Virus record (IMG/VR): IMGVR_UViG_3300030328_003717
Location: 1 to 60,364 of that record
Origin: a virus
Taxonomy: Duplodnaviria; Caudoviricetes
Reading direction: 5' to 3' (one strand)
DNA length: 60,364 nucleotides
Made by a program: the position numbers and the translations under genes. This document shows, in pieces, positions 1,032 to 22,130 of the stretch (position 1 is its first letter; each line of letters begins with the position of its first letter). The notes under the pieces are model-generated. The model ran no database searches and had not been told where the DNA came from. It worked only from the letters and a program-made list of their open reading frames with translations.

Positions 1032-1070
1032 AGAAAAGACTGCTTGCTTGTCTTTTCTGACAAAAGAGCT
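1032..1070 (+). repeat. GCTTGCTTGTCT-family repeat
   Basis: AGAAAAGAC-TGCTTGCTT-GTCTTTTCT-GACAAAAGAGCT; near-identical to the 58633 copy. Confidence 0.9.
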
Positions 1071-1124
1071 GGCGGACCAGGGCCCGCTGGGCTGCAAGAA
1101 CACAGCTGTTGGTAAAGATAAGTG

Positions 1125-1153
1125 TTGTAATTATATAAGACCTGTCCTATAAT
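1125..1153 (+). promoter_or_regulatory. sigma70-type promoter with TATAAGAC box
   Basis: TTGTAA-N17-TATAAT upstream of AAGGAG RBS and ORF 1184. Confidence 0.7.
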
Positions 1154-1183
1154 AGAGGTTCAACCAATAACAAGGAGAACGTA

Positions 1184-1501
1184 ATGGACGATTACGAAAA
1201 AGAATATGAAGAAGTGTTTAAAATCACGAGAAAATCTATGGAAGCGTTGGGCGATACTATGTTAAACCTCACCAAAAAAAGAGGGGATATAACAGGCGAG
1301 TCAACCGATGCTCAGATGTTGATCGAACACTTAGTCAAGCACATGTGCGGGTTTATTCTTTGTACTTTAGCAGACGACGCTAAAGAAAGAGAAGAAGCGA
1401 TGAACATAATAAGGGAAGCAGTTAGGCATGCTGACAAGTATGCGCTAGAGGCTTTGGACGAAGCAGAAGCAAACGAAGCAAACAAATCAACCAAACACTA
1501 A
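1184..1501 (+). CDS. Hypothetical helical protein
   Basis: AAGGAG RBS, own promoter and terminator. Confidence 0.8.
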   Translation: MDDYEKEYEEVFKITRKSMEALGDTMLNLTKKRGDITGESTDAQMLIEHLVKHMCGFILCTLADDAKEREEAMNIIREAVRHADKYALEALDEAEANEANKSTKH

Positions 1502-1520
1502 ACGCCTCCTTGTTAGTGTG

Positions 1521-1549
1521 AAAGGGCTATCTTCGGGTAGCCCTTTTTT
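1521..1549 (+). terminator. Intrinsic terminator
   Basis: AAAGGGCTA-TC(TTCG)GG-TAGCCCTTT followed by T-run. Confidence 0.85.
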
Positions 1550-1576
1550 GTGCTTGAGTCCTTTGTCCATCGACCA

Positions 1577-1670
1577 AGAACAGACGCTTGCTTGTCTGTC
1601 CTCTCTAAAAAGATCACGGCCCGCAGCTGGCGCAGGACAGACTGCTTGCTTGTCTGTCCTTTCTAAAAAG
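1577..1670 (+). repeat. Two GCTTGCTTGTCTGTCCTYTCTAAAAAG repeats, 58 bp apart
   Basis: Copies at 1586 and 1644, between convergent terminators. Confidence 0.9.
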
Positions 1671-1700: not shown

Positions 1701-1731
1701 AAAAAAAAACGCCCTCTTTCGAGGGCGTTTC
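1701..1731 (-). terminator. Intrinsic terminator
   Basis: Minus strand GAAACGCCCTC-GAAA-GAGGGCGTTTTTTTTT. Confidence 0.85.
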
Positions 1732-1765
1732 TACTTGCAACAGATTGTGGTGAACTATTAGGGGA

Positions 1766-2852: not shown

Positions 2853-2904
2853 GACAAGCTAGCAAATGGGAGATAGGGGGAACCCCCCCATTTGCTAGCT
2901 TGTC
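2853..2904. repeat. Perfect 18-bp inverted repeat built from a variant of the repeat unit
   Basis: GACAAGCTAGCAAATGGG / CCCATTTGCTAGCTTGTC around AGATAGGGGGAACCCC. Confidence 0.9.
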
Positions 2905-3026
2905 TATCTTTATCTTTAGAGCAGAAAATAGACAGGCACAGAATATCCAGAAAATTTGACATTTTGCGACCCCCCTTATATAACAAAAAAGGTTAGGAGT
3001 CCCTGGGCCACCGTCAAATTTTATAT

Positions 3027-3473
3027 ATGAAAAAAACTTGCATCACTTGTAATCGAACACTTCCACAATCGGAATACACCAAGAAACGTAATGTTTGCAA
3101 ACGGTGCACCTCTTTTCAAAGAAACGTTGCAAGGAATCATACGCCGGAATCCTATCTCGCTGTGGTGTATCACAAATTAAAAACAGCAAGAGCAGATATG
3201 GAGTGGGATATTGATGCAGACCATATAAATAAATTGTGGCACAAACAAGAAGGATGTTGTGCTTTATCAGGTGTGTTTATGACGTGGCATGGAGGCGAAG
3301 GACGACAGGATCTTAATGCCAGTATTGATAGAAAAGATTCCAATAAAGGATATATAATAGGCAACGTGCAATTAGTGACACAAAGAGTCAACACCATAAA
3401 ACACACACTGGGAGAAGGAGAACTCTACTGGTGGTGCAAAAACATAATACACAACAAAGAAAATGCCAATTAA
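3027..3473 (+). CDS. HNH-like endonuclease with N-terminal Zn finger
   Basis: CITC...CKRC; CALSG...SIDRKDSNKGYIIGNVQLV...N; upstream of terL. Confidence 0.65.
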   Translation: MKKTCITCNRTLPQSEYTKKRNVCKRCTSFQRNVARNHTPESYLAVVYHKLKTARADMEWDIDADHINKLWHKQEGCCALSGVFMTWHGGEGRQDLNASIDRKDSNKGYIIGNVQLVTQRVNTIKHTLGEGELYWWCKNIIHNKENAN

Positions 3474-3651
3474 ATTTAAACCCTCAGAAAAAAATTACGA
3501 CCGCAGAACCGGGACAACCACCGTTGTTCATCATTGGATGAGAGGAACACCGACCAAGGACTTGTTAGAATCGCTTGAAAAAGAAAACACCAAGCCAAAA
3601 GTAAAACATAAAATAAGATTAGAATTGTTTCGCAGAAAGAAAAGTGGTTAA
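3463..3651 (+). CDS. Small basic hypothetical protein
   Basis: Tightly packed between the HNH-like gene and terL. Confidence 0.6.
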   Translation: MPIKFKPSEKNYDRRTGTTTVVHHWMRGTPTKDLLESLEKENTKPKVKHKIRLELFRRKKSG

Positions 3652-3653
3652 CT

Positions 3654-5135
3654 ATGAATATTGATTTGGAACGTTTGGCGGAGCAATACCCGGACGCAAC
3701 GAAAGAACTCATTGAATTGACAGAGGCATTACGCACCAAACAACTCCAACGCAATGGCGCAGAAAGCTTTCTGACGTATGTCAAACACATGTGGCCCGAT
3801 TTTATTGAAGGACGCCACCATCAGATTTTTGCTGAGAAACTTGAACAAGTTGCTCGTGGTGAACTAAAACGTTTGATTATTAACATGCCACCACGACATA
3901 CAAAGAGTGAGTTCGCATCCACATACTTTCCTTCGTGGGTTTTAGGCAGAAACCCAAAACTTAAAGTCATGCAAATTACACATACAGCAGAACTGGCTTT
4001 TCGTTTTGGTCGAAGAGTCAGGGACTTAATTGATTCCGAAGATTATCAAGCAGTTTTTCCAGGGGTGGCGCTTAAAGCAGACAGCAAATCGGCAGGACGT
4101 TGGGAAACCAGCGGTGGGGGCGAAGCGTTTTATTCGGGTATCGGCGGAGCCGTAACCGGACGGGGTGCGGATTTGTTGGTTCTCGATGACATTCACTCGG
4201 AGCAAGACGCATTATCACCCACAGCACTGGACAACGCATGGGAATACTACAGTTCTGGACCGCGACAGCGGCTACAGCCCGGTGGGGCTATTGTCATTGT
4301 GATGACTCGATGGTCGACCAAGGACTTAACAGGCAGATTATTGGCAAAACAGACACAAGATCACGCAGATCAGTGGGAAGTAGTCGAATTTCCAGCTATT
4401 TTTCCAGAGTCAAATAAGCCTTTATGGCCTGGCTATTGGAAAATTGAAGAGCTAGAGGGCGTAAAAGCGTCTATTCCTGTGTCAAAGTGGGAAGCACAGT
4501 GGATGCAGAACCCAACTTCGGAAGAAGGGGCGTTGCTCAAGCGTGAATGGTGGAACACTTGGAGCAAAAAAGAAGTGCCGCAAATGCACTACGTCATTCA
4601 AAGCTACGACACGGCGTTTAGCAAGAAAGAAACCGCGGACTACTCTGCTATTACCACTTGGTGCGTGTTTCATCCCGAAGAAGGCTCACATAGACCCTGT
4701 TTGTTACTACTAGACAGCAAAAAAGGGCGGTGGGACTTTCCAGAACTGAAAAGAATCGCATACGAGCAGTACACATATTGGGAACCAGACACCATTATTG
4801 TTGAAGCAAAAGCATCCGGTATGCCACTCACCGATGAATTGCGAGCAGCGGGGATTCCTGTAGTCAATTACTCTCCAGGAAAAGGACAAGACAAGATTGC
4901 AAGAGTGAACTCGGTTGCACCCATACTCGAATCGGGCATGGTCTATGTGCCAGAGACGCGTTGGGCGGAAGAACTCGTCGAAGAATGTGCAGCATTTCCT
5001 TTCGGAGATCACGACGATTTGGTAGACTCAACCACTCAGGCTCTTCTTCGCTATCGACAAGGGGGATTTATTGGTTTAGAATCAGATTATGATATGCAGG
5101 ACAACGAGCCTCGCAGAATCAGAGAATATTACTAG
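3654..5135 (+). CDS. terL: Terminase large subunit
   Basis: INMPPRHTKS Walker A, LLVLDD Walker B, VMTRW coupling motif, RNase H-like SYDTAF...DDLVDS. Confidence 0.95.
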   Translation: MNIDLERLAEQYPDATKELIELTEALRTKQLQRNGAESFLTYVKHMWPDFIEGRHHQIFAEKLEQVARGELKRLIINMPPRHTKSEFASTYFPSWVLGRNPKLKVMQITHTAELAFRFGRRVRDLIDSEDYQAVFPGVALKADSKSAGRWETSGGGEAFYSGIGGAVTGRGADLLVLDDIHSEQDALSPTALDNAWEYYSSGPRQRLQPGGAIVIVMTRWSTKDLTGRLLAKQTQDHADQWEVVEFPAIFPESNKPLWPGYWKIEELEGVKASIPVSKWEAQWMQNPTSEEGALLKREWWNTWSKKEVPQMHYVIQSYDTAFSKKETADYSAITTWCVFHPEEGSHRPCLLLLDSKKGRWDFPELKRIAYEQYTYWEPDTIIVEAKASGMPLTDELRAAGIPVVNYSPGKGQDKIARVNSVAPILESGMVYVPETRWAEELVEECAAFPFGDHDDLVDSTTQALLRYRQGGFIGLESDYDMQDNEPRRIREYY

Positions 5136-5145
5136 AGGAATTAAA

Positions 5146-5304
5146 ATGGACAAAGGTGAAAAGATCAAGGATCAAGGAATGGTTCCTTACGCAAAACAAA
5201 AAACCATAGCAACCAGCAAAGGGCCAAAGCCCGGCGCAGGCAAAGGTAAATCAAGAGGCAAAGGCGCAGCACTACGCGGCATCAAGTTTACAGGAGTATA
5301 TTAA
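5146..5304 (+). CDS. Small basic Gly/Lys-rich protein
   Basis: GAGG RBS; ends RGKGAALRGIKFTGVY. Confidence 0.65.
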   Translation: MDKGEKIKDQGMVPYAKQKTIATSKGPKPGAGKGKSRGKGAALRGIKFTGVY

Positions 5305-6008
5305 TGGCTATGGGAATACTTAAAGGTATTGGTAAAGGCCTTGGGTCTTTGATGCGAAGAGGCAGAGGACCAAACAGAAGGCTGACTCCTGAAGAAGTTG
5401 CGCAAAGGAATTTAATGGAGGCGAAACAGGCGACTCAAGCAGCAAAAGGGCGCTATGAAGCAGCTAGCACCCACCTAGATGAAGTGCTCCAACCCTACAG
5501 GATGAAAGACAGTTGGACCCCTGCTAGTTCAATTCCACGATATGCCCCCAGCACAGCCATGCGAGCCAAACAAGTTGGAGACGAAACCATGGGAATGATT
5601 AGAGACTCAATTATGAAAATGGATCTTCCAGCGGCTAAAAAAGTAGAAGCGATTAAATCAGCAGCAACAGCTGTTAGAAACGCAACGCCAGCTCAACTCG
5701 CTAAAGCAGATCCAGCTCAACTTTCTATGGACATTATAAAAATGGTAGGAGCAGGAGGCGCAGGACTCGTTGGAGGCATAGCACTAGAAGGAGCGGCCAG
5801 AGAAGGCAGACTTCCTGAAATGATACAAGATTCTTTTTTAGTCAGACCAGAGTTCAGAGGCATGAGAGAGCCAAGCCAAGCTGTTGGTAAAATGATGGAC
5901 GCAACTCAGATGGGTTACGACATGCCTGATCCAGAACCAGGACTTGGACAAGGAATGGTTTCTGATCTTTTCCTAGACCCAATGATTGACAAGTTGCTTG
6001 GAGACTAA
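5304..6008 (+). CDS. Hypothetical protein
   Basis: TAATG-coupled, between terL and portal. Confidence 0.75.
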   Translation: MAMGILKGIGKGLGSLMRRGRGPNRRLTPEEVAQRNLMEAKQATQAAKGRYEAASTHLDEVLQPYRMKDSWTPASSIPRYAPSTAMRAKQVGDETMGMIRDSIMKMDLPAAKKVEAIKSAATAVRNATPAQLAKADPAQLSMDIIKMVGAGGAGLVGGIALEGAAREGRLPEMIQDSFLVRPEFRGMREPSQAVGKMMDATQMGYDMPDPEPGLGQGMVSDLFLDPMIDKLLGD

Positions 6009-6011
6009 CCA

Positions 6012-8474
6012 ATGGCAATAGGCGACAACAAGCCGACCAATATAGATCGGATCTCTGATCTTATTGACTTAGACGTCGAAGCAGGCGAAACAGTAGAGAT
6101 CGAAGAACCAATGTCCATGGACCAAGGTGCTTCGGTATCGTTTATTGAAGACGGATCAGCGGAAATAAACTTTGGTCCGGAAGAAATGGACATGGACTTC
6201 ATGGATCAGATTCCTTTCGACGCAAACCTAGCGGATTATTTAGAAGAAGGAGAACTGGGACTGATTGCCAATGATCTAGTCGGCGACTTTGACGAAGATC
6301 ATGCAAGTCGTGGCGAATGGGAACAGACTTATGTCGAAGGACTAGACCTACTCGGTTTTAAATACGAAGATCGGGACCGTCCGTTTCCTGGCGCAAGCGG
6401 TGTCACCCACCCCCTCCTAGCAGAATCGGTTACTCAATTCCAAGCTCAAGCCTTTAAAGAGCTTTTGCCATCAAAAGGACCTGTAAAAACACAGGTAATG
6501 GGCATGGAAACACCTGAAATTGAGGCGCAAGCGGAGCGTGTTCAAGAGTACATGAACTACCAAATAACCACCGAAATGCAGGAATATACCCCTGAAATGG
6601 ACCAATTATTGTTCTATTTACCGCTTGCAGGGTCTGCGTTTAAGAAGGTTTATTTTGATCCAAGCAAACAAAGAGCGGTCAGCACCTTTGTACCCACAGA
6701 AGATTTAGTTGTTCCGTATACAGCAAGTGACTTAGAAACTTGCGAGCGCGTAACACACATTGTCAAAATGACATACAACGAAGTTCGAGCGCAACAACTT
6801 GCAGGATTCTACAGAGACATATCCATTGAACCGTCCGAGACAAACATAGACAGCAAGCCACAAGACAAAGTGGATGATCTCGAAGGCGTGTCCGCTAGCG
6901 GTGCAACAGAAATGATGTATGAACTCTTGGAGTTTCATGTGTCCATGGACATACCGGGATTTGAAGATCCCGACGGTATGCACATTCCTTATATAATTAC
7001 TGTTGATCGAACATCAAACAAAGTTTTGTCCATCCGTAGAAACTACGATCAGAATGATCCTCTAAAAAGAAAGACTCAGTATTTTGTTCACTACAAGTTC
7101 CTTCCAGGATTGGGTTTCTACGGATTCGGACTCATTCACATGATCGGCGGTTTGTCTAAAACTGCAACCGCAGCGCTTAGACAATTAATAGATGCGGGAA
7201 CCCTCGCAAACCTTCCTGCTGGATTTAAAGCAAGAGGTCTTAGAATCAGGGATGATGAGACTCCACTAGAGCCGGGAGAGTTTCGCGATGTTGATGCACC
7301 GGGAGGCGCGCTTCGAGATTCTTTAGTACCACTACCATATAAAGAACCATCGCAAACATTGCTCGCACTAATGGGAACTTGTGTTGAAGCGGGACAACGT
7401 TTTGCTTCTTTAGCAAATCTACAAATCGGCGAAGGCAATCAGGAACTACCAGTCGGCACAACCATGGCTCTATTAGAGCAAGGCACTCGTGTCATGTCGG
7501 CAGTACACAAACGACTGCATTACGCACAAAAAACAGAATTTAAAATACTAGCAAGATTGTTTGCTCAGTATCTACCACCAGAATATCCGTATCTTGTTGC
7601 TGGCGGAGATCAGATGATTAAACAACAGGACTTCGACGACCGCGTTGATGTTGTTCCTGTTTCTGATCCAAACTTCTTCTCAATGAGTCAAAGGATTTCA
7701 CTTGCGCAACAAGAACTACAACTGGTGCAAAGCAATCCAGAAATACACAACATTAAAGAATCCTATCGCAGAATGTATGAAGCGTTAGGAACAGAAAACA
7801 TTGAAGCACTGTTACTGCCTGATCCACCACCTCCCGCTCCTGTGGACCCAGCGTCAGAAAACGGTGCAGCAATCATGGGTGCTCCAGCGACAGCGTTCCC
7901 TGAACAAGAACACATGACGCACATTGAGGCGCACCTAACCTTATTAGAAAGTCCTGTGGCCATGATGAATCCAGCAACGGTGCCGTCTTTGGTGTCACAT
8001 ATCTTTCAACACATATCATTAGAAGCACAGAAAGTTGCCGACCAGCAAATGCCTGAACAACCTATGCCACAACAAGGCATGATGCCGCAAATGCAACAAG
8101 GCGGACCAACACCTCCTCCCGGTATGCCACAACAACCGCCTCCACCTAATCCAGAAAAAGAGGCATTGAAGGCGAGCATAGAAGTGGAGCTTATGGAAAC
8201 AATTATGCCTTCTCTCGAAGAAATCTTGACACCACCCGATGATGGAGTGGTAGAATTAAAACAACAAGAGCTTCAGATAAGATCGCAAGAAAACCAAGAT
8301 GATAAAGAAATTGCTGAGAAGAAACTAGAACTTGAAACAGCAAAACTTGTGCAGAAAGACCAAGCTGAAGAAGAAAAAATTAAATCTCAAGAAGACATCG
8401 CAGCACTAAAAGCGAATGTAGAAAGAGAGAGAATTAAAAAAGACATGGAGAAAGACAGTGGCAAGACGACTTAG
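6012..8474 (+). CDS. Portal protein (P22-like)
   Basis: 820 aa after terL; HPLLAESVTQFQAQA, GSAFKKVY, PVGTTMALLE; coiled-coil C-terminus. Confidence 0.88.
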   Translation: MAIGDNKPTNIDRISDLIDLDVEAGETVEIEEPMSMDQGASVSFIEDGSAEINFGPEEMDMDFMDQIPFDANLADYLEEGELGLIANDLVGDFDEDHASRGEWEQTYVEGLDLLGFKYEDRDRPFPGASGVTHPLLAESVTQFQAQAFKELLPSKGPVKTQVMGMETPEIEAQAERVQEYMNYQITTEMQEYTPEMDQLLFYLPLAGSAFKKVYFDPSKQRAVSTFVPTEDLVVPYTASDLETCERVTHIVKMTYNEVRAQQLAGFYRDISIEPSETNIDSKPQDKVDDLEGVSASGATEMMYELLEFHVSMDIPGFEDPDGMHIPYIITVDRTSNKVLSIRRNYDQNDPLKRKTQYFVHYKFLPGLGFYGFGLIHMIGGLSKTATAALRQLIDAGTLANLPAGFKARGLRIRDDETPLEPGEFRDVDAPGGALRDSLVPLPYKEPSQTLLALMGTCVEAGQRFASLANLQIGEGNQELPVGTTMALLEQGTRVMSAVHKRLHYAQKTEFKILARLFAQYLPPEYPYLVAGGDQMIKQQDFDDRVDVVPVSDPNFFSMSQRISLAQQELQLVQSNPEIHNIKESYRRMYEALGTENIEALLLPDPPPPAPVDPASENGAAIMGAPATAFPEQEHMTHIEAHLTLLESPVAMMNPATVPSLVSHIFQHISLEAQKVADQQMPEQPMPQQGMMPQMQQGGPTPPPGMPQQPPPPNPEKEALKASIEVELMETIMPSLEEILTPPDDGVVELKQQELQIRSQENQDDKEIAEKKLELETAKLVQKDQAEEEKIKSQEDIAALKANVERERIKKDMEKDSGKTT

Positions 8475-9642
8475 CACAACAGAACCTAGACGAAGTGGTG
8501 TGCCTAGTACAACAACGGGTCCAGTAATAATTCCTGGAACTGACCTAATCCAGAAAAAGATTCCACCAAGAAAACAGTTTCTTCAACGTCCACCAAGTAT
8601 CGAAGAACAGGTTGCGCAAGTTTTATCAGGACCTAGTTTTCCAGGAAAACAGACGCCAAAATTTACTCAACAACCCATGCGGATGCCAGAACCAGTTGGT
8701 CCCATGACCGACATGAGAACAATGCCGTCTATGCCTACAACAGGCATAGCTTCTTTATCTGACGTTTTACCTTTAATAGATATGGGAGGAGAAGACATTA
8801 TGCAACTTTTGTCCGGTCTTCCTAAAACACCTTCCGCACCTGTGATGGAAGATCCTGGAAGCCAAATTGTGGATTATGATCCATACTACCGTGATAGTTA
8901 TAGGATGATGGAAGATCCAGAAGAAAGGAACAGAGAAATATTAAGAGAAATGGAAGAAAATGCTTTGAACACGCCTAAACTAACCACGAACCGTATTCCA
9001 ATAGAAGAGATTAATCAAAACTTTAGGGACATAATGCAGACGGATCCAATGTCTATTCAGTCTAAAGAAGATTTGGATAATTTAATGACTGGACCATTAT
9101 TTGCTAGGCAAAGAGATGAGATATTTCAAAAGTATATTCAAAATCCTATTAATCAGCTTTGGAAAGCCAGCCAAACACCTATGATGGAAGAGGAAATGGT
9201 TTTTGATGATGTAGTTAGACCAATGCCAGTAGGAGAGGGAGTACCTTTTCCCATAGATTTAGGTGATGTTCAAGAACCAATCGACATAATTGATCCAAGA
9301 CCAATACCTGGGGCTGACCCAATGCCACCATCTCCAGAAACCACACCTGTTCAAGAAACAGGAACCACGCCTGTTCAAGGCATGACCATGGAACAAATGC
9401 AACAAATGATTGCCGACATGCAAGCGCAACAACAAGCGCAACAACAAGCGGCAACAAGGGAAGCTCAAGAAATGTCTAAACAATATATGGTTTATGGAGA
9501 CAGAACAGGATACAATCCTTATTTAAGTGGTCAGTATCAATCAGATCCGTACGGACCATCTGGAGTACCCAACATGGGAGGAATAACAACTATTCCAGTC
9601 CCTGATGGGTACGGAATTTACAACCCTGTATATGGTGGGTAA
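8458..9642 (+). CDS. Pro/Met/Gln-rich low-complexity protein
   Basis: 394-aa ORF in the head module. Confidence 0.7.
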   Translation: MARRLSTTEPRRSGVPSTTTGPVIIPGTDLIQKKIPPRKQFLQRPPSIEEQVAQVLSGPSFPGKQTPKFTQQPMRMPEPVGPMTDMRTMPSMPTTGIASLSDVLPLIDMGGEDIMQLLSGLPKTPSAPVMEDPGSQIVDYDPYYRDSYRMMEDPEERNREILREMEENALNTPKLTTNRIPIEEINQNFRDIMQTDPMSIQSKEDLDNLMTGPLFARQRDEIFQKYIQNPINQLWKASQTPMMEEEMVFDDVVRPMPVGEGVPFPIDLGDVQEPIDIIDPRPIPGADPMPPSPETTPVQETGTTPVQGMTMEQMQQMIADMQAQQQAQQQAATREAQEMSKQYMVYGDRTGYNPYLSGQYQSDPYGPSGVPNMGGITTIPVPDGYGIYNPVYGG

Positions 9643-9654
9643 TAGGAGCTAGAG

Positions 9655-9846
9655 ATAGATATTTTAGAGTTCGCGACAGCTGTGCAGCGCGCAATTGGGA
9701 AAAAAGAGCAGCAGATACAAGAAATGATGGCCAATGGTGAAACAAAAGATTGGTCACATTATCGTAATCTGGTCGGCCAAATCGAAGCGCTAAACTTCAT
9801 TCGCGAAGAAATTAGAACCATTCTAAAAAACCAGGATATAGAATAA
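9655..9846 (+). CDS. 63-aa helical protein, probable ATA start
   Basis: AGGAG 6 nt upstream of ATA; in-frame TAG at 9643; stop overlaps groES ATG. Confidence 0.7.
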   Translation: MDILEFATAVQRAIGKKEQQIQEMMANGETKDWSHYRNLVGQIEALNFIREEIRTILKNQDIE

Positions 9847-10295
9847 TGGCTAAAACAGCGCTAGAGCAAAAATGGGCTACAGAAGAGTCCGAAAAAACCC
9901 CCTTAGAAAAAGTATATGACGAAGGCATTGGGCTGGATTCAACAAAAGTTGGTGAAGATTTATTAGAAAGTCTTCCAGAGCCAACGGGATGGAGAATAAT
10001 GATTCTTCCTTTTAGAGGCGAAAGAAAAACAAAGGGAGGAATTGAGCTAACAGACGAAACACTTGGAAGACAACAAGTCAGCACCGTCTTAGGCTATGTT
10101 TTAAAAGTAGGTCCTTTGGCCTATAGCGGAGAAAGATTTTCAACCGGTTCTTGGTGCGAAGAGGGAGATTGGGTAATGTTTGGTCGTTACGCAGGATCTC
10201 GTTTTCAAATTGAGGGCGGTGAAATAAAAATACTCAATGACGATGAAATCATTGCAAGAGTACCTAACCCAGAAGCAATTCTGCATCAATTTTAA
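9846..10295 (+). CDS. groES: GroES-like co-chaperonin
   Basis: PTGWRIMI, KTKGGIEL mobile loop, VLKVGP, GDWVMFGRYAG, ILNDDEIIA. Confidence 0.9.
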   Translation: MAKTALEQKWATEESEKTPLEKVYDEGIGLDSTKVGEDLLESLPEPTGWRIMILPFRGERKTKGGIELTDETLGRQQVSTVLGYVLKVGPLAYSGERFSTGSWCEEGDWVMFGRYAGSRFQIEGGEIKILNDDEIIARVPNPEAILHQF

Positions 10296-10310
10296 CATGA
10301 GGAAAAAATC

Positions 10311-11216
10311 ATGCCAGAGCATAAACTAAACTTAAATCCTGCGGAAGAGCTTGTACAGATTGACGATACAGGCCCTGAAGTAGACGTTGAAATAGACGAA
10401 GACCAAAATGCAAATTTTGAAGCACAGCCTGTAAAAGAAAATATTTTAGAGGCAATGCCTGAAGAAAAAGAAAAAGTAGAAGACGAACACGAAGAATACA
10501 GCAAAGGTGTAAAGAAACGAATCGGCAAACTCACTGCAAAACTGCGCGAAGCAGAACGTAGAGAAGAAGCAGCGACTAAGTATGCTCAAAATGTACATAA
10601 AGAAAACGCAACACTTAAACAACAAAAACAAAACACAGACGGAAACTATATTCTTTCTGAAGCAAATAGAATTACGGCAGAAACAGAGGCTACAAAAACA
10701 CTATTACAAAAAGCGAACGAAGAACAAAATATAGATGCGCAAGTACAAGCGCAACAAAAATTGGCATCTTTGGCGGTAGAGGCTCAACGCGTACAAGCAC
10801 TCAACCAAAGAAGAACTCAACAGCCTGTACAACAGCAACAAGATTTTGTACAACAGCAACAAGAGGCTCCTATGAAACCCGATCCCAGAGCAGAAGCTTG
10901 GGCAGAAGACAACTCTTGGTTTGGTGATGATCGTGCAATGACCATTACTTCTTTCGCCATTCACGAAGATTTGTTGAACGAAGGGTTTGACGCGACAAGC
11001 GATGAGTATTATAGTGAGATAGATAAACGGATTCGAGATGAGTTTCCCCATAGATTTGGAGAAACATCTCAGCAAAACCGTCCCGCTCAAGCGGTAGCGC
11101 CAGCTAAACGCAGCGCTAAAAGTGGGCGCAAGTCTGTGAGACTCACACCTTCACAGGTAGCAATAGCGAAGAAGCTAGGTGTGCCTTTAAATGAATACGC
11201 GAAATATGTTGAATAA
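10311..11216 (+). CDS. Probable capsid scaffolding protein
   Basis: Acidic N-terminus, long coiled coil, C-terminal LTPSQVAIAKKLGVPLNEYAKY; upstream of MCP. Confidence 0.7.
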   Translation: MPEHKLNLNPAEELVQIDDTGPEVDVEIDEDQNANFEAQPVKENILEAMPEEKEKVEDEHEEYSKGVKKRIGKLTAKLREAERREEAATKYAQNVHKENATLKQQKQNTDGNYILSEANRITAETEATKTLLQKANEEQNIDAQVQAQQKLASLAVEAQRVQALNQRRTQQPVQQQQDFVQQQQEAPMKPDPRAEAWAEDNSWFGDDRAMTITSFAIHEDLLNEGFDATSDEYYSEIDKRIRDEFPHRFGETSQQNRPAQAVAPAKRSAKSGRKSVRLTPSQVAIAKKLGVPLNEYAKYVE

Positions 11217-11230
11217 ACGTGGAGACAACA

Positions 11231-11719
11231 ATGACAAAAAACAATAAAGTCGACGCAAGTCGCGAACCACGCGAAGCCCAAACTCGTGAGAAAAAACAAG
11301 CGAGAAAACCTTGGGCGCCACCATCCGCTTTGGATGCACCGAATCCTCCAGAAGGATACGTTCACCGTTGGGTAAGAATGGAAGCTAGAGGTCAAGACGA
11401 TCAGAAAAATGTGATGGCTAGACTTCGTGAAGGCTGGGAACCTGTGAGAGCAGATGAACACCCTGATTTCGATTCTCCCGTAATGGAAGAAGGTAAATTT
11501 CAAGGAGTAATTGGTGTTGGCGGATTGATTCTTTGTCGAATCCCAATCGAAACCGTCCAAGAAAGGACCGCTTACTTTACAACAAAGGCAGAGGGACAAA
11601 TGGACGCGGTTGATAATGATTTGATGAAAGATGGAACACATCCTAGTATGTCAATTAGTAAACCTAATAGGCAATCTCGCGTAACAATTGGCGGAACTCA
11701 AGGTTCTTCACAGAACTAA
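11231..11719 (+). CDS. Head-module hypothetical protein
   Basis: GGAG RBS before ATG 11231; position between scaffold and capsid genes. Confidence 0.75.
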   Translation: MTKNNKVDASREPREAQTREKKQARKPWAPPSALDAPNPPEGYVHRWVRMEARGQDDQKNVMARLREGWEPVRADEHPDFDSPVMEEGKFQGVIGVGGLILCRIPIETVQERTAYFTTKAEGQMDAVDNDLMKDGTHPSMSISKPNRQSRVTIGGTQGSSQN

Positions 11720-11760
11720 GGGTTTTTAATAATAATTCTTGAATAGAGGAAAAGTTTAAC

Positions 11761-12342
11761 ATGGCAAACGTAGACAAGGCTTTTGGTCTAAGACCTTATA
11801 AAGGCCTAAATGTTGGTTCAGCTGTACAAGAAGCTAATAAATATAGTATTGATCCTTCCGGATATGGTACAAGCATCTTTCAAGGTGACTTGTGCATATT
11901 CGCAGGCGGATATATTAATAGAGCAGCAGCTTCTTCAGCTAACATAGTCGGTGTGTTCTCACACTGCTACTATGTGAACACAAGCGGTGAGCCTACCTTC
12001 TCGAATTACTATCCAGCTAGTACAACGGCACTCGGAGGCGGAGCTATAGAATGTTATATCTATGACGACCCTAACCAAATGTTTCTTGTACAAGCGGACG
12101 GTGCTTCAGCTGTAACATGTATTGGTAGAAATGCTGATACTGACGGCATTGGTGGTTCAACGACTACAGGTGTTTCCACTCGTGAACTCGACTCTAGCAC
12201 TATAGCAACAACGCAAGGACTACAACTTAAAATCGTTGGTGTTGTTCAAGATGACTCTAATGGAGACCTCACAGCGGATAATGCAAATTTGGTTGTAATA
12301 ATCAATGAGCACGCTTACAGAGGTCCTGTTGCAGGAACGTAA
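11761..12342 (+). CDS. Probable capsid decoration/minor head protein
   Basis: GAGG RBS, beta-rich, directly before MCP. Confidence 0.6.
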   Translation: MANVDKAFGLRPYKGLNVGSAVQEANKYSIDPSGYGTSIFQGDLCIFAGGYINRAAASSANIVGVFSHCYYVNTSGEPTFSNYYPASTTALGGGAIECYIYDDPNQMFLVQADGASAVTCIGRNADTDGIGGSTTTGVSTRELDSSTIATTQGLQLKIVGVVQDDSNGDLTADNANLVVIINEHAYRGPVAGT

Positions 12343-12354
12343 GGAGTAATTTAG

Positions 12355-13263
12355 ATGGCAATTAGTAGAGCACAATTGGTAAAAGAATTGCTTCCAGGCC
12401 TTAACGCATTATTTGGTCTTGAGTACGATAGATATGATAACGAACATGAAGAAATTTATGACGTCGAATCAAGTGATCGTGCTTTTGAAGAAGAAGTAAT
12501 GTTAACAGGCTTTGATAGCGCACCTGTTAAGTCAGAAGGAGCAGGAGTTGCATTTGACCAAGCGCAAGAAGCGTTTACGTCAAGGTACACTCACGAAACG
12601 ATAGCATTGGCGTTTTCAATTACTGAGGAAGCGGTCGAAGATAACTTGTATGACAGACTGTCAGCAAGATATACTCGCGCGCTCGCCCGAAGTATGGCAA
12701 ACACTAAGCAAGTAAAAGCAGCATCTGTTTTAAACAGAGCGTTCAACACAAGTTATTTAGGCGGAGACGGTAAAGAACTTTGCGCAACAGACCACCCGAC
12801 TGTGGGTGGCGCTAATTTGCGTAACGAACTTTCAACTGCAGCTGACCTGAACGAAACTTCGTTGGAACAAGCTCTTATTGACATTGCAGCATTTACTGAC
12901 GAACGTGGATTGAAAGTAGCTCTTCAAGGAACGAAACTAATCATTCCTAAAGAACTACAGTTCACTGCCGATAGATTGTTGGAAACACCAGGACGTGTTG
13001 GAACGTCTGATAATGATATTAACGCTATGAAAAACATGGGAATGATCCCTGAAGGTTATACTGTTAATCATTATCTAACTGACACTGATGCTTGGTTCAT
13101 TAAGACTGATTGTCCGAACGGATTCAAAATGTTTGATCGTTCACCAATCAGAACTTCAATGGAAGCTGATTTTGACACAGGCAATGTTCGCTACAAGGCT
13201 AGAGAAAGATACTCTTTTGGATGGAGTGATCCAAGAGCAGTATTTGGAAGCCCAGGAGCATAA
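12355..13263 (+). CDS. Major capsid protein (HK97 fold)
   Basis: MAISRAQLVKELLPGLNALFG...KARERYSFGWSDPR; AAGGAG RBS; position. Confidence 0.9.
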   Translation: MAISRAQLVKELLPGLNALFGLEYDRYDNEHEEIYDVESSDRAFEEEVMLTGFDSAPVKSEGAGVAFDQAQEAFTSRYTHETIALAFSITEEAVEDNLYDRLSARYTRALARSMANTKQVKAASVLNRAFNTSYLGGDGKELCATDHPTVGGANLRNELSTAADLNETSLEQALIDIAAFTDERGLKVALQGTKLIIPKELQFTADRLLETPGRVGTSDNDINAMKNMGMIPEGYTVNHYLTDTDAWFIKTDCPNGFKMFDRSPIRTSMEADFDTGNVRYKARERYSFGWSDPRAVFGSPGA

Positions 13264-13271
13264 CCAAATAT

Positions 13272-13318
13272 GGAACCCCGCCGGGGGTTTCTTACTCAAC
13301 CCGGCACACTTTTCTCTT
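13272..13318 (+). terminator. Hairpin/terminator after MCP
   Basis: GGAACCCC-GCCG-GGGGTTTC; alternative GCCGGG/CCCGGC stem followed by pyrimidine tract. Confidence 0.55.
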
Positions 13319-13353
13319 TATATTTCCCTTCTTTCCAAGTAGTATGTAATTTA

Positions 13354-13408
13354 CTAGGGTTAACTTGTCCTACAGACTGACCTAGCAGACAAGCCAAGAC
13401 GGTAGGAC
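13354..13408 (+). ncRNA. Candidate structured leader RNA (pseudoknot)
   Basis: GTCCTAC/GTAGGAC stem; CTG-ACCTAG-CAG hairpin whose loop complements upstream CTAGG. Confidence 0.45.
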
Positions 13409-13433
13409 TTATTTTTTTCTCAGGAGGAAAATT

Positions 13434-13940
13434 ATGGCTAAATCAACCTTTTCAGGACCAGTACAATCACTGGCTGGATTTATTTCGGCAGGAAACGCTA
13501 ACGTAGTTAGTTTGACCGCTGACACAACTTTGACCGTTGCATCACATGCAGGCAAAGTATTAATAACCAATGACGCAGACGGTAAGTTTACTTTACCTTC
13601 TATTGTTGCAACTGCTCCAGGCAGTGACGACGATCCAAACCAAACCAATAACCTAGGCGCTACTTTTACGTTTATAGTTGTCACCGCAGCAACAGATATG
13701 GACATCTTAACGGATGGAACAGATAAGTTCGTTGGTGGTCTATATACTGGAGTTACTGATGCAACAGGTAAAACTTTTATTTCTGGTGCGAGCAACGATG
13801 TTATCACTATGAACGGAAGCACTAAGGGCGGACTTGCTGGTAGCATTGTAAAAGTAACTGCAATGGCTTCTGCTAAGTATGCGGTGGAAGGAATCATACT
13901 TGGTTCAGGAACACTAGTTACTCCATTCGCTGACGCATAA
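13434..13940 (+). CDS. Virion structural protein (possible head fibre/decoration)
   Basis: AGGAGG RBS; Thr/Gly/Ala beta-rich; directly after MCP. Confidence 0.7.
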   Translation: MAKSTFSGPVQSLAGFISAGNANVVSLTADTTLTVASHAGKVLITNDADGKFTLPSIVATAPGSDDDPNQTNNLGATFTFIVVTAATDMDILTDGTDKFVGGLYTGVTDATGKTFISGASNDVITMNGSTKGGLAGSIVKVTAMASAKYAVEGIILGSGTLVTPFADA

Positions 13941-13951
13941 GGAGGTAAACC

Positions 13952-14371
13952 ATGGCTAATACAGTCACAGGCCCTACCATTCAGTATGACTATGACAAAA
14001 AACTAATTGTTTATTGTTCAGTTTTATCAGACGGAAGCGCAAGTAGCACAACGTTGGTTGATGTTTCAGCATTGACAAAAAACAACGCAAAAGCTTGCGC
14101 TCACGTTGCACTAAATAAAATCTGGTACACAGTAGGCGGAGGAACAGATGCTCCTGCTTCCCTAGATTGGGATGCAGACACTAACGTTACTTTTTTAACG
14201 CTTTCTTATGACAATATGTTTGACTTTAGTTCTATTGGAGGATTGGTCAACACAGAAGCTACGGGATACAGTGGAGACGTTCTTTTCGTTATTCCATCAA
14301 CTTCCGATGCTGGAAACGAGTACACAGTTTGGTGCGAGTTCATAAAATATTATGAAGCACCTAATAATTAG
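13952..14371 (+). CDS. Virion-associated hypothetical protein
   Basis: AGGAGG RBS; position. Confidence 0.7.
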   Translation: MANTVTGPTIQYDYDKKLIVYCSVLSDGSASSTTLVDVSALTKNNAKACAHVALNKIWYTVGGGTDAPASLDWDADTNVTFLTLSYDNMFDFSSIGGLVNTEATGYSGDVLFVIPSTSDAGNEYTVWCEFIKYYEAPNN

Positions 14372-14380
14372 AGGTAAATC

Positions 14381-14551
14381 ATGCCAGGAATGAATGAAAG
14401 AAAAAGACACATGAGAGGCGAAACCAAGACCGCTCGCGGTGACTATGGAACTAAAGGTTACAAGTATGGCGGCAAGGTTAAAGTAATGCCAGGTTATGGC
14501 TCTATTAGTTCATCAATATCAAGAGCGCATAAGAAAGACCGTAGGCGTTAA
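14381..14551 (+). CDS. 56-aa basic protein with YKYGG motif
   Basis: GAGG RBS; MPGMNERKRH...YKYGGKVKV...KKDRRR; below the ORF-track cutoff. Confidence 0.65.
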   Translation: MPGMNERKRHMRGETKTARGDYGTKGYKYGGKVKVMPGYGSISSSISRAHKKDRRR

Positions 14552-14553
14552 TC

Positions 14554-15213
14554 ATGGCGACTTCAGGAACTACAGCATTCGATCTGAGTGTTGATGAAAT
14601 TATTGAAGAAGCATACGAGCGTTGCGGAATCGAACTTCGTACTGGGTACGATTTAGAAACCGCACGTCGTTCGTTGAATCTTATGATTGCTGAATGGGCA
14701 AACAGAGGCCTTAATCAGTGGTTAATTGTTAAAAATAATTTTACAGTTACTGAAGGCACAAACTATGTAGACTTAGGCACAGATGTTGTAGACATAACAT
14801 CTGCTGTCATTCAAAGAGACAACACAGATTTTCAACTTGAGCGTATAAGTAGGTCTGATTTTTTATATACACCAGAAAAAGCAGACAAAGCTAGACCAAC
14901 TCAGTTTTTCTTAGAAAGACACATAACACCTAGAATATATCTGTACCCAACACCAGAAAACTCTACAGACGTAGTTTATTACTACGCACTAACAAGGATG
15001 CAAGACGTAGGGGATTATACAAACACCATGGAAACAGTTTTTCGTTTTCTTCCGTGTATGGCCGCTGGTTTGGCTTATTATATAGCAATAAAAAGAGCAC
15101 CAGACAGAGTGCAGTTGTTAAAACAGATTTATGATGAGGAGTTTGATAGAGCAGCGTTTGAGGACATTGATTCTGTAAGTTCTAAGTTTGTTCCGCCTAG
15201 AGTGGTGATATAA
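14554..15213 (+). CDS. Head-tail adaptor (P22 gp4-like)
   Basis: ARRSLNLMIAEWANRG, P...YLYPTP pattern; size and position. Confidence 0.7.
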   Translation: MATSGTTAFDLSVDEIIEEAYERCGIELRTGYDLETARRSLNLMIAEWANRGLNQWLIVKNNFTVTEGTNYVDLGTDVVDITSAVIQRDNTDFQLERISRSDFLYTPEKADKARPTQFFLERHITPRIYLYPTPENSTDVVYYYALTRMQDVGDYTNTMETVFRFLPCMAAGLAYYIAIKRAPDRVQLLKQIYDEEFDRAAFEDIDSVSSKFVPPRVVI

Positions 15214-15974
15214 TGGCTTTTTCTGCTGGCAAACATGCTTGGGGAATTTGTGATATTTCGGGTCAAAGATACAGACTAAAAGACATGAAGACACAGTGGA
15301 ACGGTCTTCGTGTTGGTTATGACCAATTTGACACGAAACACCCACAACTAGATCCACCACATATAGCTGCAGACCCACAAGCGCTAAGAAACCCTAGACC
15401 AGACAGAACAGAACCTGTTGCAGAAGCTTTATTAATAAGCAATCCTTTTTTGTCTACAGCTTCTAGCGCAGTAGTAACTGTTTTTGAAGACGATCATGGA
15501 AGAACAACTGGTGATAAAGTTAGGTTTAGAGGAACTGAGTCTTTTGCTGGACTCTCTGCGTCTGTTTTAGAAGATCCTGACGCATACTCAATTACGGTTA
15601 TAAACACAGACACATACAGTTTTGGTGTTTCTTCTGGCACAGCAACTAGCGCTATTAGAGGCGGAGGCGGTTTCGTTTCAGTGGGACCAGCGCAAGCTCT
15701 TTTGCCTTTAGACCCATTTAAAACATTAACTTCTGGAGCAAACGCTGAAATTCAAGTTACAGAGTTTAAACACAACAGAACTACAGGAGATACGGTTAGG
15801 CTTCGTAACACAAAAGCTTTTGACGGCATAACAACAACTATACTTGAAGCTTCGGATGGATATACAATAACAGTTGTAAACGACAATAATTATAAATTTA
15901 CTTCAACAGGAACAGCTACTACTGGCGATGTTAGCGGTGGTGGCTCAAAAGCAACAGCAGGACCTACAACATGA
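15213..15974 (+). CDS. Virion protein with two HGxxxGDxVxF-type beta repeats
   Basis: Duplicated HGRTTGDKVRF / HNRTTGDTVRL modules. Confidence 0.7.
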   Translation: MAFSAGKHAWGICDISGQRYRLKDMKTQWNGLRVGYDQFDTKHPQLDPPHIAADPQALRNPRPDRTEPVAEALLISNPFLSTASSAVVTVFEDDHGRTTGDKVRFRGTESFAGLSASVLEDPDAYSITVINTDTYSFGVSSGTATSAIRGGGGFVSVGPAQALLPLDPFKTLTSGANAEIQVTEFKHNRTTGDTVRLRNTKAFDGITTTILEASDGYTITVVNDNNYKFTSTGTATTGDVSGGGSKATAGPTT

Positions 15975-16633
15975 GTTTTACATACAGCGGACTAAAGACA
16001 GCGGTACAGAATTATATAGATAGTTCTGAAACCACTTTTGTAAACACGTTGGATACGTTTATACAACAAGCGGAAAACCGCATATTTAATACGATTGAAC
16101 TCAATGTTTTTAGAAAAAATGTAACAGGTACGGCAGCCTCTGGAAATCAATATTTGTCTGCACCAACAGATTTTATTTCTCCTTTGAGTTTGGCTGTTTT
16201 AGACAGTGACAGTAAATACACTTATTTATTATTAAAGCACCCTAGTTTCATGCGCAACTATACAACAACAGCGGCCACCACAGGATCACCTAAATATTAC
16301 GGACAGTTTGATGATGACACATTTATTTTGGCGCCAACACCAAACGCTAATTTAACTTTTGAACTGCATTATCTATATCAACCAAATTCATTGACTGCAG
16401 CGGGAGACAGTGGCACAACTTGGGTTTCAAAAAATGCTCCCGATTTACTACTGTATGGAACGTTAGTGGAAGCAAGCGTGTTTTTAAAACAAGACTTAAA
16501 CGAAACAAACATGTTTGAGGCTCGTTTTCAAGAAAACTTAGTTAGACTTAGTAATTTAATGGAAGGAAGATCTACAAGAGACGAAAATCGATTTGATAGA
16601 CAAAGAGGTTTTGTTTCTGCTTCACCTCAGTAG
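15971..16633 (+). CDS. Second adaptor-like tail protein
   Basis: GSPKYY...LAPTP...LLLYGTLVEA pattern, similar to 14554. Confidence 0.65.
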   Translation: MSFTYSGLKTAVQNYIDSSETTFVNTLDTFIQQAENRIFNTIELNVFRKNVTGTAASGNQYLSAPTDFISPLSLAVLDSDSKYTYLLLKHPSFMRNYTTTAATTGSPKYYGQFDDDTFILAPTPNANLTFELHYLYQPNSLTAAGDSGTTWVSKNAPDLLLYGTLVEASVFLKQDLNETNMFEARFQENLVRLSNLMEGRSTRDENRFDRQRGFVSASPQ

Positions 16634-17350
16634 ATGCTAGAAAACAAACTTAAAGGCAAGAAAATTGCCATAGTTGCTATGGGCAGAAGTCAAATAGACT
16701 ATCATTTGTCCATCAGCCATAGTCAAGAATACGATGAAGTTTGGACCATAGGTTCAATGTGCGCTGTTGTAAGCCCAGATAGAGCTTTTGTCATGGACCC
16801 AGCCACTCGTTTTTTTGACACAAACGATGCTGGCCCTCAAACAGAAATAATGCGCAAAACACTACCAAGACTAGATATTCCAATTTATTCTTGCACAGAA
16901 GACAACCGTGTTCCTGGGATTGTTTTATATCCTTTGCAGGAAGTCATTCAAAAAACAGGTTGCGCTTATTTTAATAATTCCATTGCTTATGCGATTGCGT
17001 TTGCTCTTTATCAAGAAGTAGGATCTATCAACATGTTTGGAGCAGATTTTACATATAAAACCAACGTGCATTTTGGAGAAATGGGACGAGCGTGCTGCGA
17101 GTTTTGGTTGTCTAAATGTATCCAAAAAGGAATAGATATTGCGATTGCACCGTCTTCTTCACTATTAGACACAAACGTATCTATACAAGAAAAATTATAT
17201 GGATACCATAGGCTTGAAGATCCACCTGTGGTATATTTAGAAAAAGGTGAATTAGTTGTTGGAAACCTTTCGGAAGTTTTAGAAGAAAAACCACTTACAG
17301 GACTTTCGGGAAGACAAGACATTGGTCCACCAGAACCAGAGAAATATTAA
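16634..17350 (+). CDS. Putative nucleotide-sugar transferase-like Rossmann protein
   Basis: KIAIVAMGRS...NSIAYAIAFAL...INMFGADF resembles MAF/DUF115/sialyltransferase-like folds; tentative. Confidence 0.45.
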   Translation: MLENKLKGKKIAIVAMGRSQIDYHLSISHSQEYDEVWTIGSMCAVVSPDRAFVMDPATRFFDTNDAGPQTEIMRKTLPRLDIPIYSCTEDNRVPGIVLYPLQEVIQKTGCAYFNNSIAYAIAFALYQEVGSINMFGADFTYKTNVHFGEMGRACCEFWLSKCIQKGIDIAIAPSSSLLDTNVSIQEKLYGYHRLEDPPVVYLEKGELVVGNLSEVLEEKPLTGLSGRQDIGPPEPEKY

Positions 17351-17640
17351 TGGAAACTGATTCATTTAAAATCTCCATAGGAAACCTTGGAGTAAAAACA
17401 ACACATGGTAGAGGCCATACAGTAGAAGAAGTTGCTGAAATGGCTACTAATAAATTGGTTTCGGTGAGCGACACAGCGCCGGAACCGATCAAAGCGCAAG
17501 CCCATGCCTTCAGAAATTCGTGTCAGATTATTATTGCTCATTACATGCGTGAGGCAATTAAAAACCACATGTGTACGATAGGCAATCAATTAGAAGCGCA
17601 AGGACATAAAGACCTTGCAGAAATTATTAGGAGGCTATAA
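17350..17640 (+). CDS. Hypothetical protein
   Basis: TAATG coupling on both sides. Confidence 0.75.
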   Translation: METDSFKISIGNLGVKTTHGRGHTVEEVAEMATNKLVSVSDTAPEPIKAQAHAFRNSCQIIIAHYMREAIKNHMCTIGNQLEAQGHKDLAEIIRRL

Positions 17641-18071: not shown

Positions 18072-18078
18072 ACCAGTT

Positions 18079-18912: not shown

Positions 18913-18953
18913 TAATATAAAGACTATAATCTATTAAATAACGGAGGCATTTA

Positions 18954-21806: not shown

Positions 21807-21809
21807 AAA

Positions 21810-22130
21810 ATGGCAGTAACTAAAACGCTAACGAAATCTATTCCCCATGTAAAATCAAGCAAGGTTGAGCAATGGGATTTAGAAATGACTTACGAGAACG
21901 ACAGTGAAGGTGATGCAACTTATTACAAGTCTGTATTTAGTCACACAGCGGTCGCAGCCGATGGTGATTTTACCAAAGCAGCTAAAAGTTCGTTTAATCT
22001 GGCAGCACTGACAGCAATGTTTCCAACAGCACATTGGGATACAGTATTTGCAAGTCAGGTAGATTCAGTGATTACGAATCCCGCTACACCAGCAGTGGCA
22101 GATAACGACTTTTCAGTACCTTCTAGCTAG
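21810..22130 (+). CDS. Tail-fibre-associated small protein
   Basis: GAGG RBS; follows the fibre gene. Confidence 0.65.
   Translation: MAVTKTLTKSIPHVKSSKVEQWDLEMTYENDSEGDATYYKSVFSHTAVAADGDFTKAAKSSFNLAALTAMFPTAHWDTVFASQVDSVITNPATPAVADNDFSVPSS

Follow-up and report, generated by a model that had tools for sequence, protein, structure and literature searches.

The repeats described here belong to a phage genome of 60,364 bp (Duplodnaviria; Caudoviricetes; IMG/VR virus record IMGVR_UViG_3300030328_003717, positions 1 to 60,364, called the window below), and their closest described counterparts are found in theta replicons and in other phages. In theta replicons (P1 oriR, F, pPS10, RK2 and the ori/crr of P4), iterons and Rep operators are direct repeats of one orientation lying by DnaA boxes, variable in copy number and specific to the lineage in sequence. 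Extra clusters can be found kilobases away, inverted partial copies cover promoters, and Rep operators overlap the promoter −35. Iterons are regularly spaced in helical phase, about 22 bp apart, and a common architecture with lineage-specific sequence is the pattern of co-evolving protein-site pairs of this kind. The untranslated repeat regions of phage T5, with the injection stop signal, are described in 10.1101/866236 as non-coding stretches among pre-early genes in which paired DnaA boxes accompany palindromes and both direct and inverted repeats, and which are more conserved than the neighbouring open reading frames (ORFs). In T4-like phages, the PeSL cassettes consist of short conserved motifs which flank small variable early ORFs and accompany indels between close relatives (PMC2839356, PMC4122927). 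The stoperators of cluster A mycobacteriophages (PMC9283540) are many asymmetric sites in short intergenic gaps, bound by a monomeric phage protein.

A sequence-only reading of the window had singled out three hairpins. These hairpins are part of a far larger, one-directional family of ~26-base repeats that occupies non-coding gaps in the early region of a group of very abundant marine phages. The units are most likely docking sites for a phage protein. As to the role of such sites, we tentatively favour, as a possibility rather than a probability, an origin or control region assisted by DnaA, where a phage protein would bind the units in the manner of iterons and the hairpin copies would be operator-like inverted repeats.

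The hairpins themselves were correctly described. The copies at 1032-1058 (AGAAAAGAC-TGCTTGCTT-GTCTTTTCT) and 1634-1660 (AGGACAGAC-TGCTTGCTT-GTCTGTCCT) have perfect 9-bp stems with 9-nt loops and differ at stem positions 3 and 5, each change being compensated on both arms; in the copy at 1577-1602 (AGAACAGAC-GCTTGCTT-GTCTGTCCT) the loop is 8 nt long and the stem contains a single A/C mismatch. As single-stranded DNA, the stems fold at -6.7, -4.5 and -8.2 kcal/mol (z -3.7, -1.8 and -3.3). Chance is excluded as their source because the match counts exceed expectation and none of 100 shuffles equals them: for the 17-mer AGACTGCTTGCTTGTCT with up to 3 mismatches, 0.30 matches are expected and 3 observed, and for the 12-mer GCTTGCTTGTCT, allowing one mismatch, 0.54 are expected and 9 observed, all on the + strand. 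Seven of these 12-mer matches are exact (at 1042, 1586, 1644, 58570, 58634, 58707 and 58764). Four further copies, in an array at 58569-58800, and a variant at 2893-2918 had been overlooked. All copies fall within 58569..2918 across the circular junction, which is 4.7 kb of the 60.4-kb genome (Table 1). The four array units are spaced 64, 73 and 57 bp from start to start, and none has an upstream arm. The variant core of unit H, also written GCTAGCTTGTCT, is kept in relatives and lies immediately ahead of the HNH-TerL operon promoter.

Together with a GC-rich box at about +35, the ~26-nt element recurs in hundreds of copies among related IMG/VR contigs. The pattern TGCTTGCTTGTCTNTYCT matches 107 IMG/VR contig stretches, many with 3-11 copies; loci with a single match may be due to chance. 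Around the repeats, many of the matching contigs have a DNA identity of 77-94% to this genome. Cores with at most one mismatch were collected and identical 130-nt contexts removed, which left 352 contexts, 272 of the unit type; overlapping loci and close orthologues are included, so the contexts cannot be treated as independent. The units have the consensus tGCTTGCTTGTCTtTTCT..CtaAaa. Beyond it no sequence is conserved, but the G+C content reaches 70%, and the words CCWGG and GGCCC cluster at +30 to +44 (165 CCWGG occurrences there in 274 units). The core is near-invariant over 18 nt, while tails, copy number and neighbouring genes diverge among relatives. When one genome was taken from each of 185,579 prokaryote species, a 23-nt version of the core had a single match, without similarity to this phage; a host site or host mimicry is therefore unlikely. 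The element can be described as strand-polar, cis-acting DNA: an asymmetric ~26-bp core, tGCTTGCTTGTCT(T/G)TTCT..CTAAAA, with a GC-rich and in part palindromic box (CCWGG/GGCCC) ~35 bp further downstream. Its putative reader would be a phage-encoded, sequence-specific DNA-binding protein.

Other known repeat classes fit poorly. Chi-like words (GCTGG[TC]G at +45..+54) occur in just ~23 of 274 units, and a restriction-site decoy was rejected since CCWGG is not avoided in the genome (70 copies). The tails carry a GC box at a fixed offset and the spacing ranges from 45 to 170 bp, which is not the arrangement of CRISPR-like mini-arrays, where constant repeats alternate with unrelated spacers of similar length. 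REP/BIME elements, imperfect palindromes in every copy and present in both orientations, are likewise not recognised, as an arm is present in just 53/366 copies and 497 units have one orientation against 12 with the other.

The phage itself is placed in or near the HTVC023P-type group because its DNA polymerase is 49-53% identical to the polymerases of the Pelagibacter phages HTVC023P and HTVC027P and of 023Pt_psg01 and DSL-LC04. The 12-mer core is absent from the three complete relatives HTVC023P, 023Pt_psg01 and DSL-LC04; degenerate GCTTGCTTGT copies occur in 023Pt_psg01. HTVC023P (MN698239.1 14932-15063, locus L120) carries three direct repeats of unrelated sequence, TTGAGA(A/T)TAACAACGAAA, on the same strand and at distances of 56 and 58 bp. 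They occupy the unannotated gap that follows gp25, the nuclease homologue of this phage, and thus the same place as the array here. Promoters, origins or intergenic repeats are mentioned neither in the search listings on this phage group nor in the main texts of PMC9599517, PMC11598899 and PMC12753301, and no description of the present repeats was found in these or in one preprint.

The hairpin form proved to be a discrete subtype. Copies were counted as arm-bearing when at least 8 of 9 positions were complementary, with loops of 8 to 12 nt allowed. This holds for 53 of 366 distinct contexts; none has 7 complementary positions and the remainder have 1 to 6, which is why the form is considered discrete. 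Fifty-one of the 53 are perfect, with the arm pairs AGAAAAGAC/GTCTTTTCT (36), AGAACAGAC/GTCTGTTCT (10), AGGACAGAC/GTCTGTCCT (2), AGAAGAAAC/GTTTCTTCT (2) and AGAAAAAAC/GTTTTTTCT (1). When 3' arms were permuted among units, perfect stems averaged 17 and reached 27 at most in 200 trials. In three of the nine stem pairs both partners vary, in no pair does a single partner vary alone, and 98% of cells pair, against 52-65% with the partner slid; this pair count covers the 7 of 14 distinct hairpin sequences that have 9-nt loops, since MAFFT gapped 5' arms where loop lengths differed, and a script served for the count over the full set. Such changes are illustrated by the orthologous site of 1032-1058: its arms are AGAAAAGAC/GTCTTTTCT here, AGAACAGAC/GTCTGTTCT in the related loci L029, L060, L063 and L074, and AGAAAAAAC/GTTTTTTCT in L035. 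The perfect pairs in several variants and the two-sided changes indicate that arm complementarity is maintained, although conversion of a whole hairpin from another copy could mimic selection on the arms.

It had been inferred from the three hairpins that selection acts on a DNA hairpin, a cruciform or a dyad protein site rather than on RNA. The covariation expected among homologous loci was found, a role at the DNA level is favoured, and the arms are under some constraint. The hairpin as defining trait does not hold, as 313 of 366 distinct copies retain the same asymmetric core without an arm, nor does a simple dyad protein site, which leaves the inverted partners at several different spacings and arrangements unexplained. 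On this earlier reading the hairpin or cruciform would itself be selected as a structure-specific target, and the resolvase-type nuclease, the HNH enzyme or, on single-stranded DNA, a primase would bind or cut it. Besides the covariation of the arms, it can draw on the nuclease resembling Holliday-junction resolvases that is always the neighbour, on the encoded archaeo-eukaryotic-type primase, and on the 3' part of the core, whose pairing partner varies from copy to copy (an arm upstream, an arm downstream or an inverted core). We consider it improbable all the same. In some copies other than the upstream-arm subtype, the partner of the 3' segment is an inverted copy of it further downstream, or the entire core faces an inverted core at varied distances, and these partner arrangements have no one structure common to the whole family. 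The array units fold at just -2 to -6.6 kcal/mol; one clearly beats shuffles (z -2.78, 3/200) and the others do not (z +0.98 to -1.26). Cruciforms with 9-nt loops and AT-rich 9-bp arms are energetically weak, and loops of 8-10 nt would make extrusion costly. Under the iteron-like reading, the hairpin copies would instead carry the 3' sub-site GTCTNTNCT also inverted on the other side of the core, giving an operator-like inverted repeat, or a hairpin once single-stranded.

The orientation of the units was scored in loci with at least two units and an anchor gene. The scoring relied on anchor proteins and on promoter motifs (an ORF-based orientation count was dropped, as GC-rich arrays create false ORFs), and since loci overlap, the figures are not contig counts. 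Units lie on the strand of the nuclease gene in 60/60 loci, of HNH in 16/16 and of TerL in 13/13, and opposite a RusA-like gene in 26/26. Early promoters of the type TTGNNN..TATRGGAT..TATAAT are, by contrast, co-oriented with the units in 19 distinct cases and opposite in 30, depending on the subclade. For instance, the contig behind loci L048-L051 has leftward early genes, and 14 of its units point rightward and one leftward. In the window, the copies at 1577 and 1634 sit, as previously recognised, between convergent terminators, both of which are supported by folding. Because promoter direction varies and copies are enclosed by terminators, the element does not need a transcript of fixed sense, and this favours recognition at the DNA rather than the transcript level, on stronger grounds than those given in the sequence-only reading. 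The polarity is no proof that orientation is under selection; the same picture would arise if cassettes had been inserted into an ancestral tandem array.

These observations also bear on the idea that the units act in transcripts, e.g., as 3' untranslated modules in the mRNA of the nuclease, as processing sites or as sponges for proteins. The primary array indeed follows directly on the nuclease gene in every case and in the same orientation, no terminator lies between them in this genome, and the array folds somewhat better as RNA than shuffles (z -2.4). Dispersed copies are, however, antisense to local genes in many relatives, copies F and G lie behind terminators, the stems have no G-U intermediates, and neither Rfam families nor tRNAs were matched, all of which makes an RNA element very improbable. 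The tails fold just slightly better than mononucleotide shuffles (-12.8 vs -10.8 kcal/mol) and several have no hairpin, so tails were also rejected as minus-strand terminators. Hairpins E, F and G, with AT-rich stems and 8-9-nt loops, do not resemble intrinsic terminators, in which a U run immediately follows a GC-rich stem with a short loop; none of the three 9-bp stems appears in the terminator scan, whose sole entry at the hairpins (1632-1649, +) is a different 5-pair stem overlapping unit G. RNA contigs of public runs cover 59598-60364 well and otherwise include a few 34-44-nt pieces of low identity near 55250-55582 that run into unlike sequence; they are uninformative on the units. Apart from the repeats, a 13-bp perfect hairpin (AGAGCTACCAAGC / GCTTGGTAGCTCT; -28.5 kcal/mol, z -4.95) is located at 982-1019, just before unit E. 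Its arms change together in relatives, and in L029 and L060 the + strand shows G-T pairs; this suggests an RNA-level 3' structure for the upstream gene.

Control of transcription would assign the units a different role at the DNA level: a phage regulator would bind them as operators, roadblocks or insulators and so switch off early transcription units or keep them apart. Copies lie 70-90 bp upstream of early promoters (58830, 1125 and pre-HNH) and beside terminators. In some relatives the core overlaps or supplies the −35 hexamer of early promoters (TTGCTT-17-TATAAT), or lies in a palindrome that overlaps the −35. Such a role is nonetheless rather unlikely, as arrays of 3-8 copies occur without a following promoter, copies also lie in gaps closed by terminators at both sides, and unit orientation is independent of promoter direction, unlike that of stoperators, which function by orientation (PMC9283540). 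Compared with the latter, which are 13 bp long, genome-wide and oriented with transcription, the present units are ~26 bp long plus a second box and confined to 8% of the genome, and their orientation follows neither early promoters nor the early genes of L048-L051. A reading of the units as promoters for a phage polymerase, of the N4 hairpin type, was rejected, as no single-subunit RNA polymerase was found among the window ORFs scanned. The 1251-aa ORF at 50147-53902 was a candidate for an N4 virion RNA polymerase through a PHROG match alone (E 3.5e-5), and was discarded for want of PDB or Pfam support and of polymerase motif B. The N-terminus of this ORF is rich in glycine and alanine, and in its Atlas neighbour cluster 15% of members carry LPD22; it may be an injected polyvalent protein.

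The iteron-like reading is favoured because DnaA boxes abut an array of uniform orientation, the architecture is conserved with lineage-specific sequence, the copy number drifts, and inverted partial as well as promoter-overlapping copies exist. The array begins two bases past the last perfect DnaA box, and a second perfect box lies 32 bp upstream of it. Perfect boxes number 4 in the genome against 0.54 expected, two of them at the array. In 12 of 16 distinct related loci, two to three boxes in an 11-bp register stand ahead of the first unit. Asymmetric direct repeats of the same orientation, at least three of which characterise iterons, number four here and 3-8 in relatives. The primary array, after the nuclease gene and abutting the DnaA boxes, would then be an iteron-type replication origin or control locus at which host DnaA and the phage protein may assemble together. 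The dispersed copies would represent the same array broken up by inserted early-gene cassettes and would correspond to the extra clusters of theta replicons.

Several points weigh against this interpretation. DnaA boxes are absent in distant subclades (4/16 loci and several arrays). Successive cores are 45-170 bp apart throughout the family, without a preferred phase, and the 64, 73 and 57 bp measured here are not helically phased either; in this the units are unlike classical iterons, as they are in the variable GC-rich tail of each unit and in their occurrence in a lytic-type podophage. Among the 31 and 18+9 ORFs scanned, a part of those present, none next to the array was recognised as a Rep-like initiator or a helix-turn-helix protein. 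Replication genes are 10-17 kb away, no clear AT-rich unwinding element is seen at the array besides the early promoter, and the GC skew mirrors gene direction only and places no origin. Finally, the uniform orientation could be the neutral outcome of tandem duplication followed by cassette insertion.

The last point leads to the proposal that the units are selfish or neutral tandem repeats, maintained by unequal crossing-over and serving as mere homology for the shuffling of early-gene cassettes. PeSLs, composite promoter-terminator motifs, are described as mediating indels in PMC4122927, and such shuffling has been proposed for them. In relatives, 1 to 5 units occur between the convergent terminators, and the cassette 1184-1501, a gene with its promoter, is missing in L029 and L074. 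Assemblies also break within the array: the contigs of the best-matching public DNA run end inside it (58661-58781), where word depth is up about fourfold, and the array is thus evidently common to several co-occurring genotypes. Against this account, which is improbable, stand the near-invariance of the core despite diverging tails and genes, and the second box, which is held at a fixed distance. The deletion of the cassette, moreover, joined short similar words in a tail and in the 3' end of the gene, not two cores. The units also differ from PeSLs in forming gene-free arrays, in not being terminators and in an orientation that does not follow transcription; no −35-like hexamer of their consensus has a −10 hexamer at a distance of 16-18 bp, and the tails are not consistent hairpins.

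The closest alternative to the iteron-like reading is a signal for DNA entry or packaging. The units and DnaA boxes would bound the first-entering or last-packaged segment, as a T5-like stop signal or as recognition repeats for the terminase or the HNH enzyme near the genome ends. It ranks closest because T5 regions combine direct repeats, palindromes and paired DnaA boxes, and because the region here lies between TerS and HNH-TerL. Indeed, non-coding stretches with direct and inverted repeats, palindromes and paired DnaA boxes are found here too, and the repeat-bearing region amounts to 7.8% of the genome, against 7.9% for the T5 first-step segment (10.1101/866236). The polarity of the units is locked to HNH and TerL, and the strongly conserved palindrome H lies directly before the HNH gene. 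Near the nuclease homologue, the annotations of two relatives include TerS: in 023Pt_psg01 it is just upstream of and divergent from this gene, and in DSL-LC04 the annotated TerS coding sequence overlaps the nuclease match. In HTVC023P the gene upstream is gp24, annotated as hypothetical. There is no sequence similarity to T5, where eight boxes occur in inverted pairs instead of two or three on one side. In T5 the region lies in a long terminal repeat of the first-entering end and DNA transfer takes two steps, while the present phage is known from a circular contig. Several dispersed copies would make packaging starts ambiguous, the assembly is circular with an ORF across the junction, contigs alone cannot show ends or nicks, and the T5 DnaA model is itself a proposal. 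Overall, an entry or packaging signal is unlikely. By analogy, the 4.7-kb region might even be the first-step-transfer segment of a podophage, with units and DnaA boxes at its far boundary as a checkpoint that would hold the genome at the membrane until early proteins, perhaps the resolvase-type nuclease, release it; we regard this as a long shot. An entry checkpoint of this kind has been proposed for T5 (10.1101/866236) and never shown.

The array has as neighbours the resolvase-type nuclease and small ORFs without family matches. The nuclease matches phrog_2165 and phrog_93 in PHROG and nothing in Pfam, and its PD...ELK motif is invariant in 24 aligned homologues. Sequence and profile searches against solved structures gave weak matches. 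The best fold matches of its structural model (mean pLDDT 71), i.e., 4qbn VRR_NUC (probability 0.96, E 0.026), Hjc and PrfA resolvases, are all weak as well. The resolvase label given to this gene in the sequence-only reading is therefore plausible, not firm.

The window is a single contig of 60,364 bp that makes up the entire assembly. A small ORF continues in frame from 60315 across the contig end to 154, which shows that the assembly is circular. The gene content is that of a phage, with HNH/endonuclease VII-like, large terminase, portal, family-A DNA polymerase, archaeo-eukaryotic-type primase, helicase and TerS-like genes. The 4.7-kb region consists of small ORFs with consensus sigma-70-type promoters, and we infer from this that it is the early region. 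Between the −35 and −10 of the early promoters of the clade (58830-58858, 1125-1153 and 151-178; loci L001-L107), a conserved spacer word, TAT(A/G)(A/G)GAT(A/T)TTT, is found. It is unusual for plain sigma-70, and an extra factor may be involved. Two tandem 20-nt repeats, AA(T/A)ACCAA(A/C)(C/A)GCTGTTGTAT, at 2067-2106 upstream of the promoter 2135-2162 contain the palindrome ACAGCTGT and may be the operator of a different regulator. Two small ORFs of the region, 59258-59434 and 60315-60364 joined to 1-154, are paralogous and share ~120 nt of near-identical DNA (1-120 vs 59287-59400). A 28-codon ORF on the − strand (1766-1852) encodes a hydrophobic peptide and stops just before the leftward terminator.

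Table 1. Repeat units, signals and genes discussed in the text, with their positions in the window
Feature	Position	Strand	Remarks
PD-(D/E)XK nuclease, 143 aa, VRR-NUC/Hjc resolvase type (plausible assignment)	58093..58524	+	always directly upstream of the primary array
DnaA boxes	58527..58567	-	two perfect boxes TTATCCACA at 58527-58535 and 58559-58567, degenerate box between
Unit A, core TGCTTGCTTGTCTGTTCTGGCAAAAG	58569..58594	+	no upstream arm; GC-rich tail to 58632
Unit B, core	58633..58658	+	tail to 58705, includes CCCTGGGCC
Unit C, core	58706..58731	+	local 8-bp hairpin (TGCTTGTC with GACAAGCG, closing pair G-T) in place of the upstream arm
Unit D, core	58763..58788	+	final array unit
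Sigma-70-type early promoter TTGTAT-17-TATAAT	58830..58858	+	conserved spacer TATGGGATATTT; by reading, under the promoter-scan threshold; same type in relatives
Unit E	1032..1066	+	perfect hairpin 1032-1058 (arms AGAAAAGAC/GTCTTTTCT), core 1041-1066; orthologues with compensated arms
Sigma-70-type promoter TTGTAA-17-TATAAT	1125..1153	+	serves gene 1184-1501
Intrinsic terminator of gene 1184-1501	1520..1547	+	12-bp stem, then U run; folding
Unit F	1577..1610	+	hairpin 1577-1602 (8-nt loop, one A/C mismatch), core 1585-1610
Unit G	1634..1668	+	perfect hairpin 1634-1660 (arms AGGACAGAC/GTCTGTCCT), core 1643-1668
Intrinsic terminator of the leftward small-gene operon	about 1701..1732	-	12-bp stem and U9; folding
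Unit H	2853..2918	+	18-bp perfect palindrome 2853-2904, right arm is core variant TGCTAGCTTGTCT (2893-2905); -23.5 kcal/mol, z -7.4
HNH/endonuclease VII-like gene	3027..3473	+	right border of the repeat-bearing region; co-oriented with units in 16/16 loci
Terminase large subunit (TerL)	3654..5135	+	co-oriented with units in 13/13 loci
Archaeo-eukaryotic-type primase	44979-46568
TerS-like gene	54852-55361

The presence of a repeat array explains why assemblies break in this region. Furthermore, a near-invariant, strand-polar element accompanied by DnaA boxes provides a concrete handle on replication start, cell entry or early-gene organisation in these phages.

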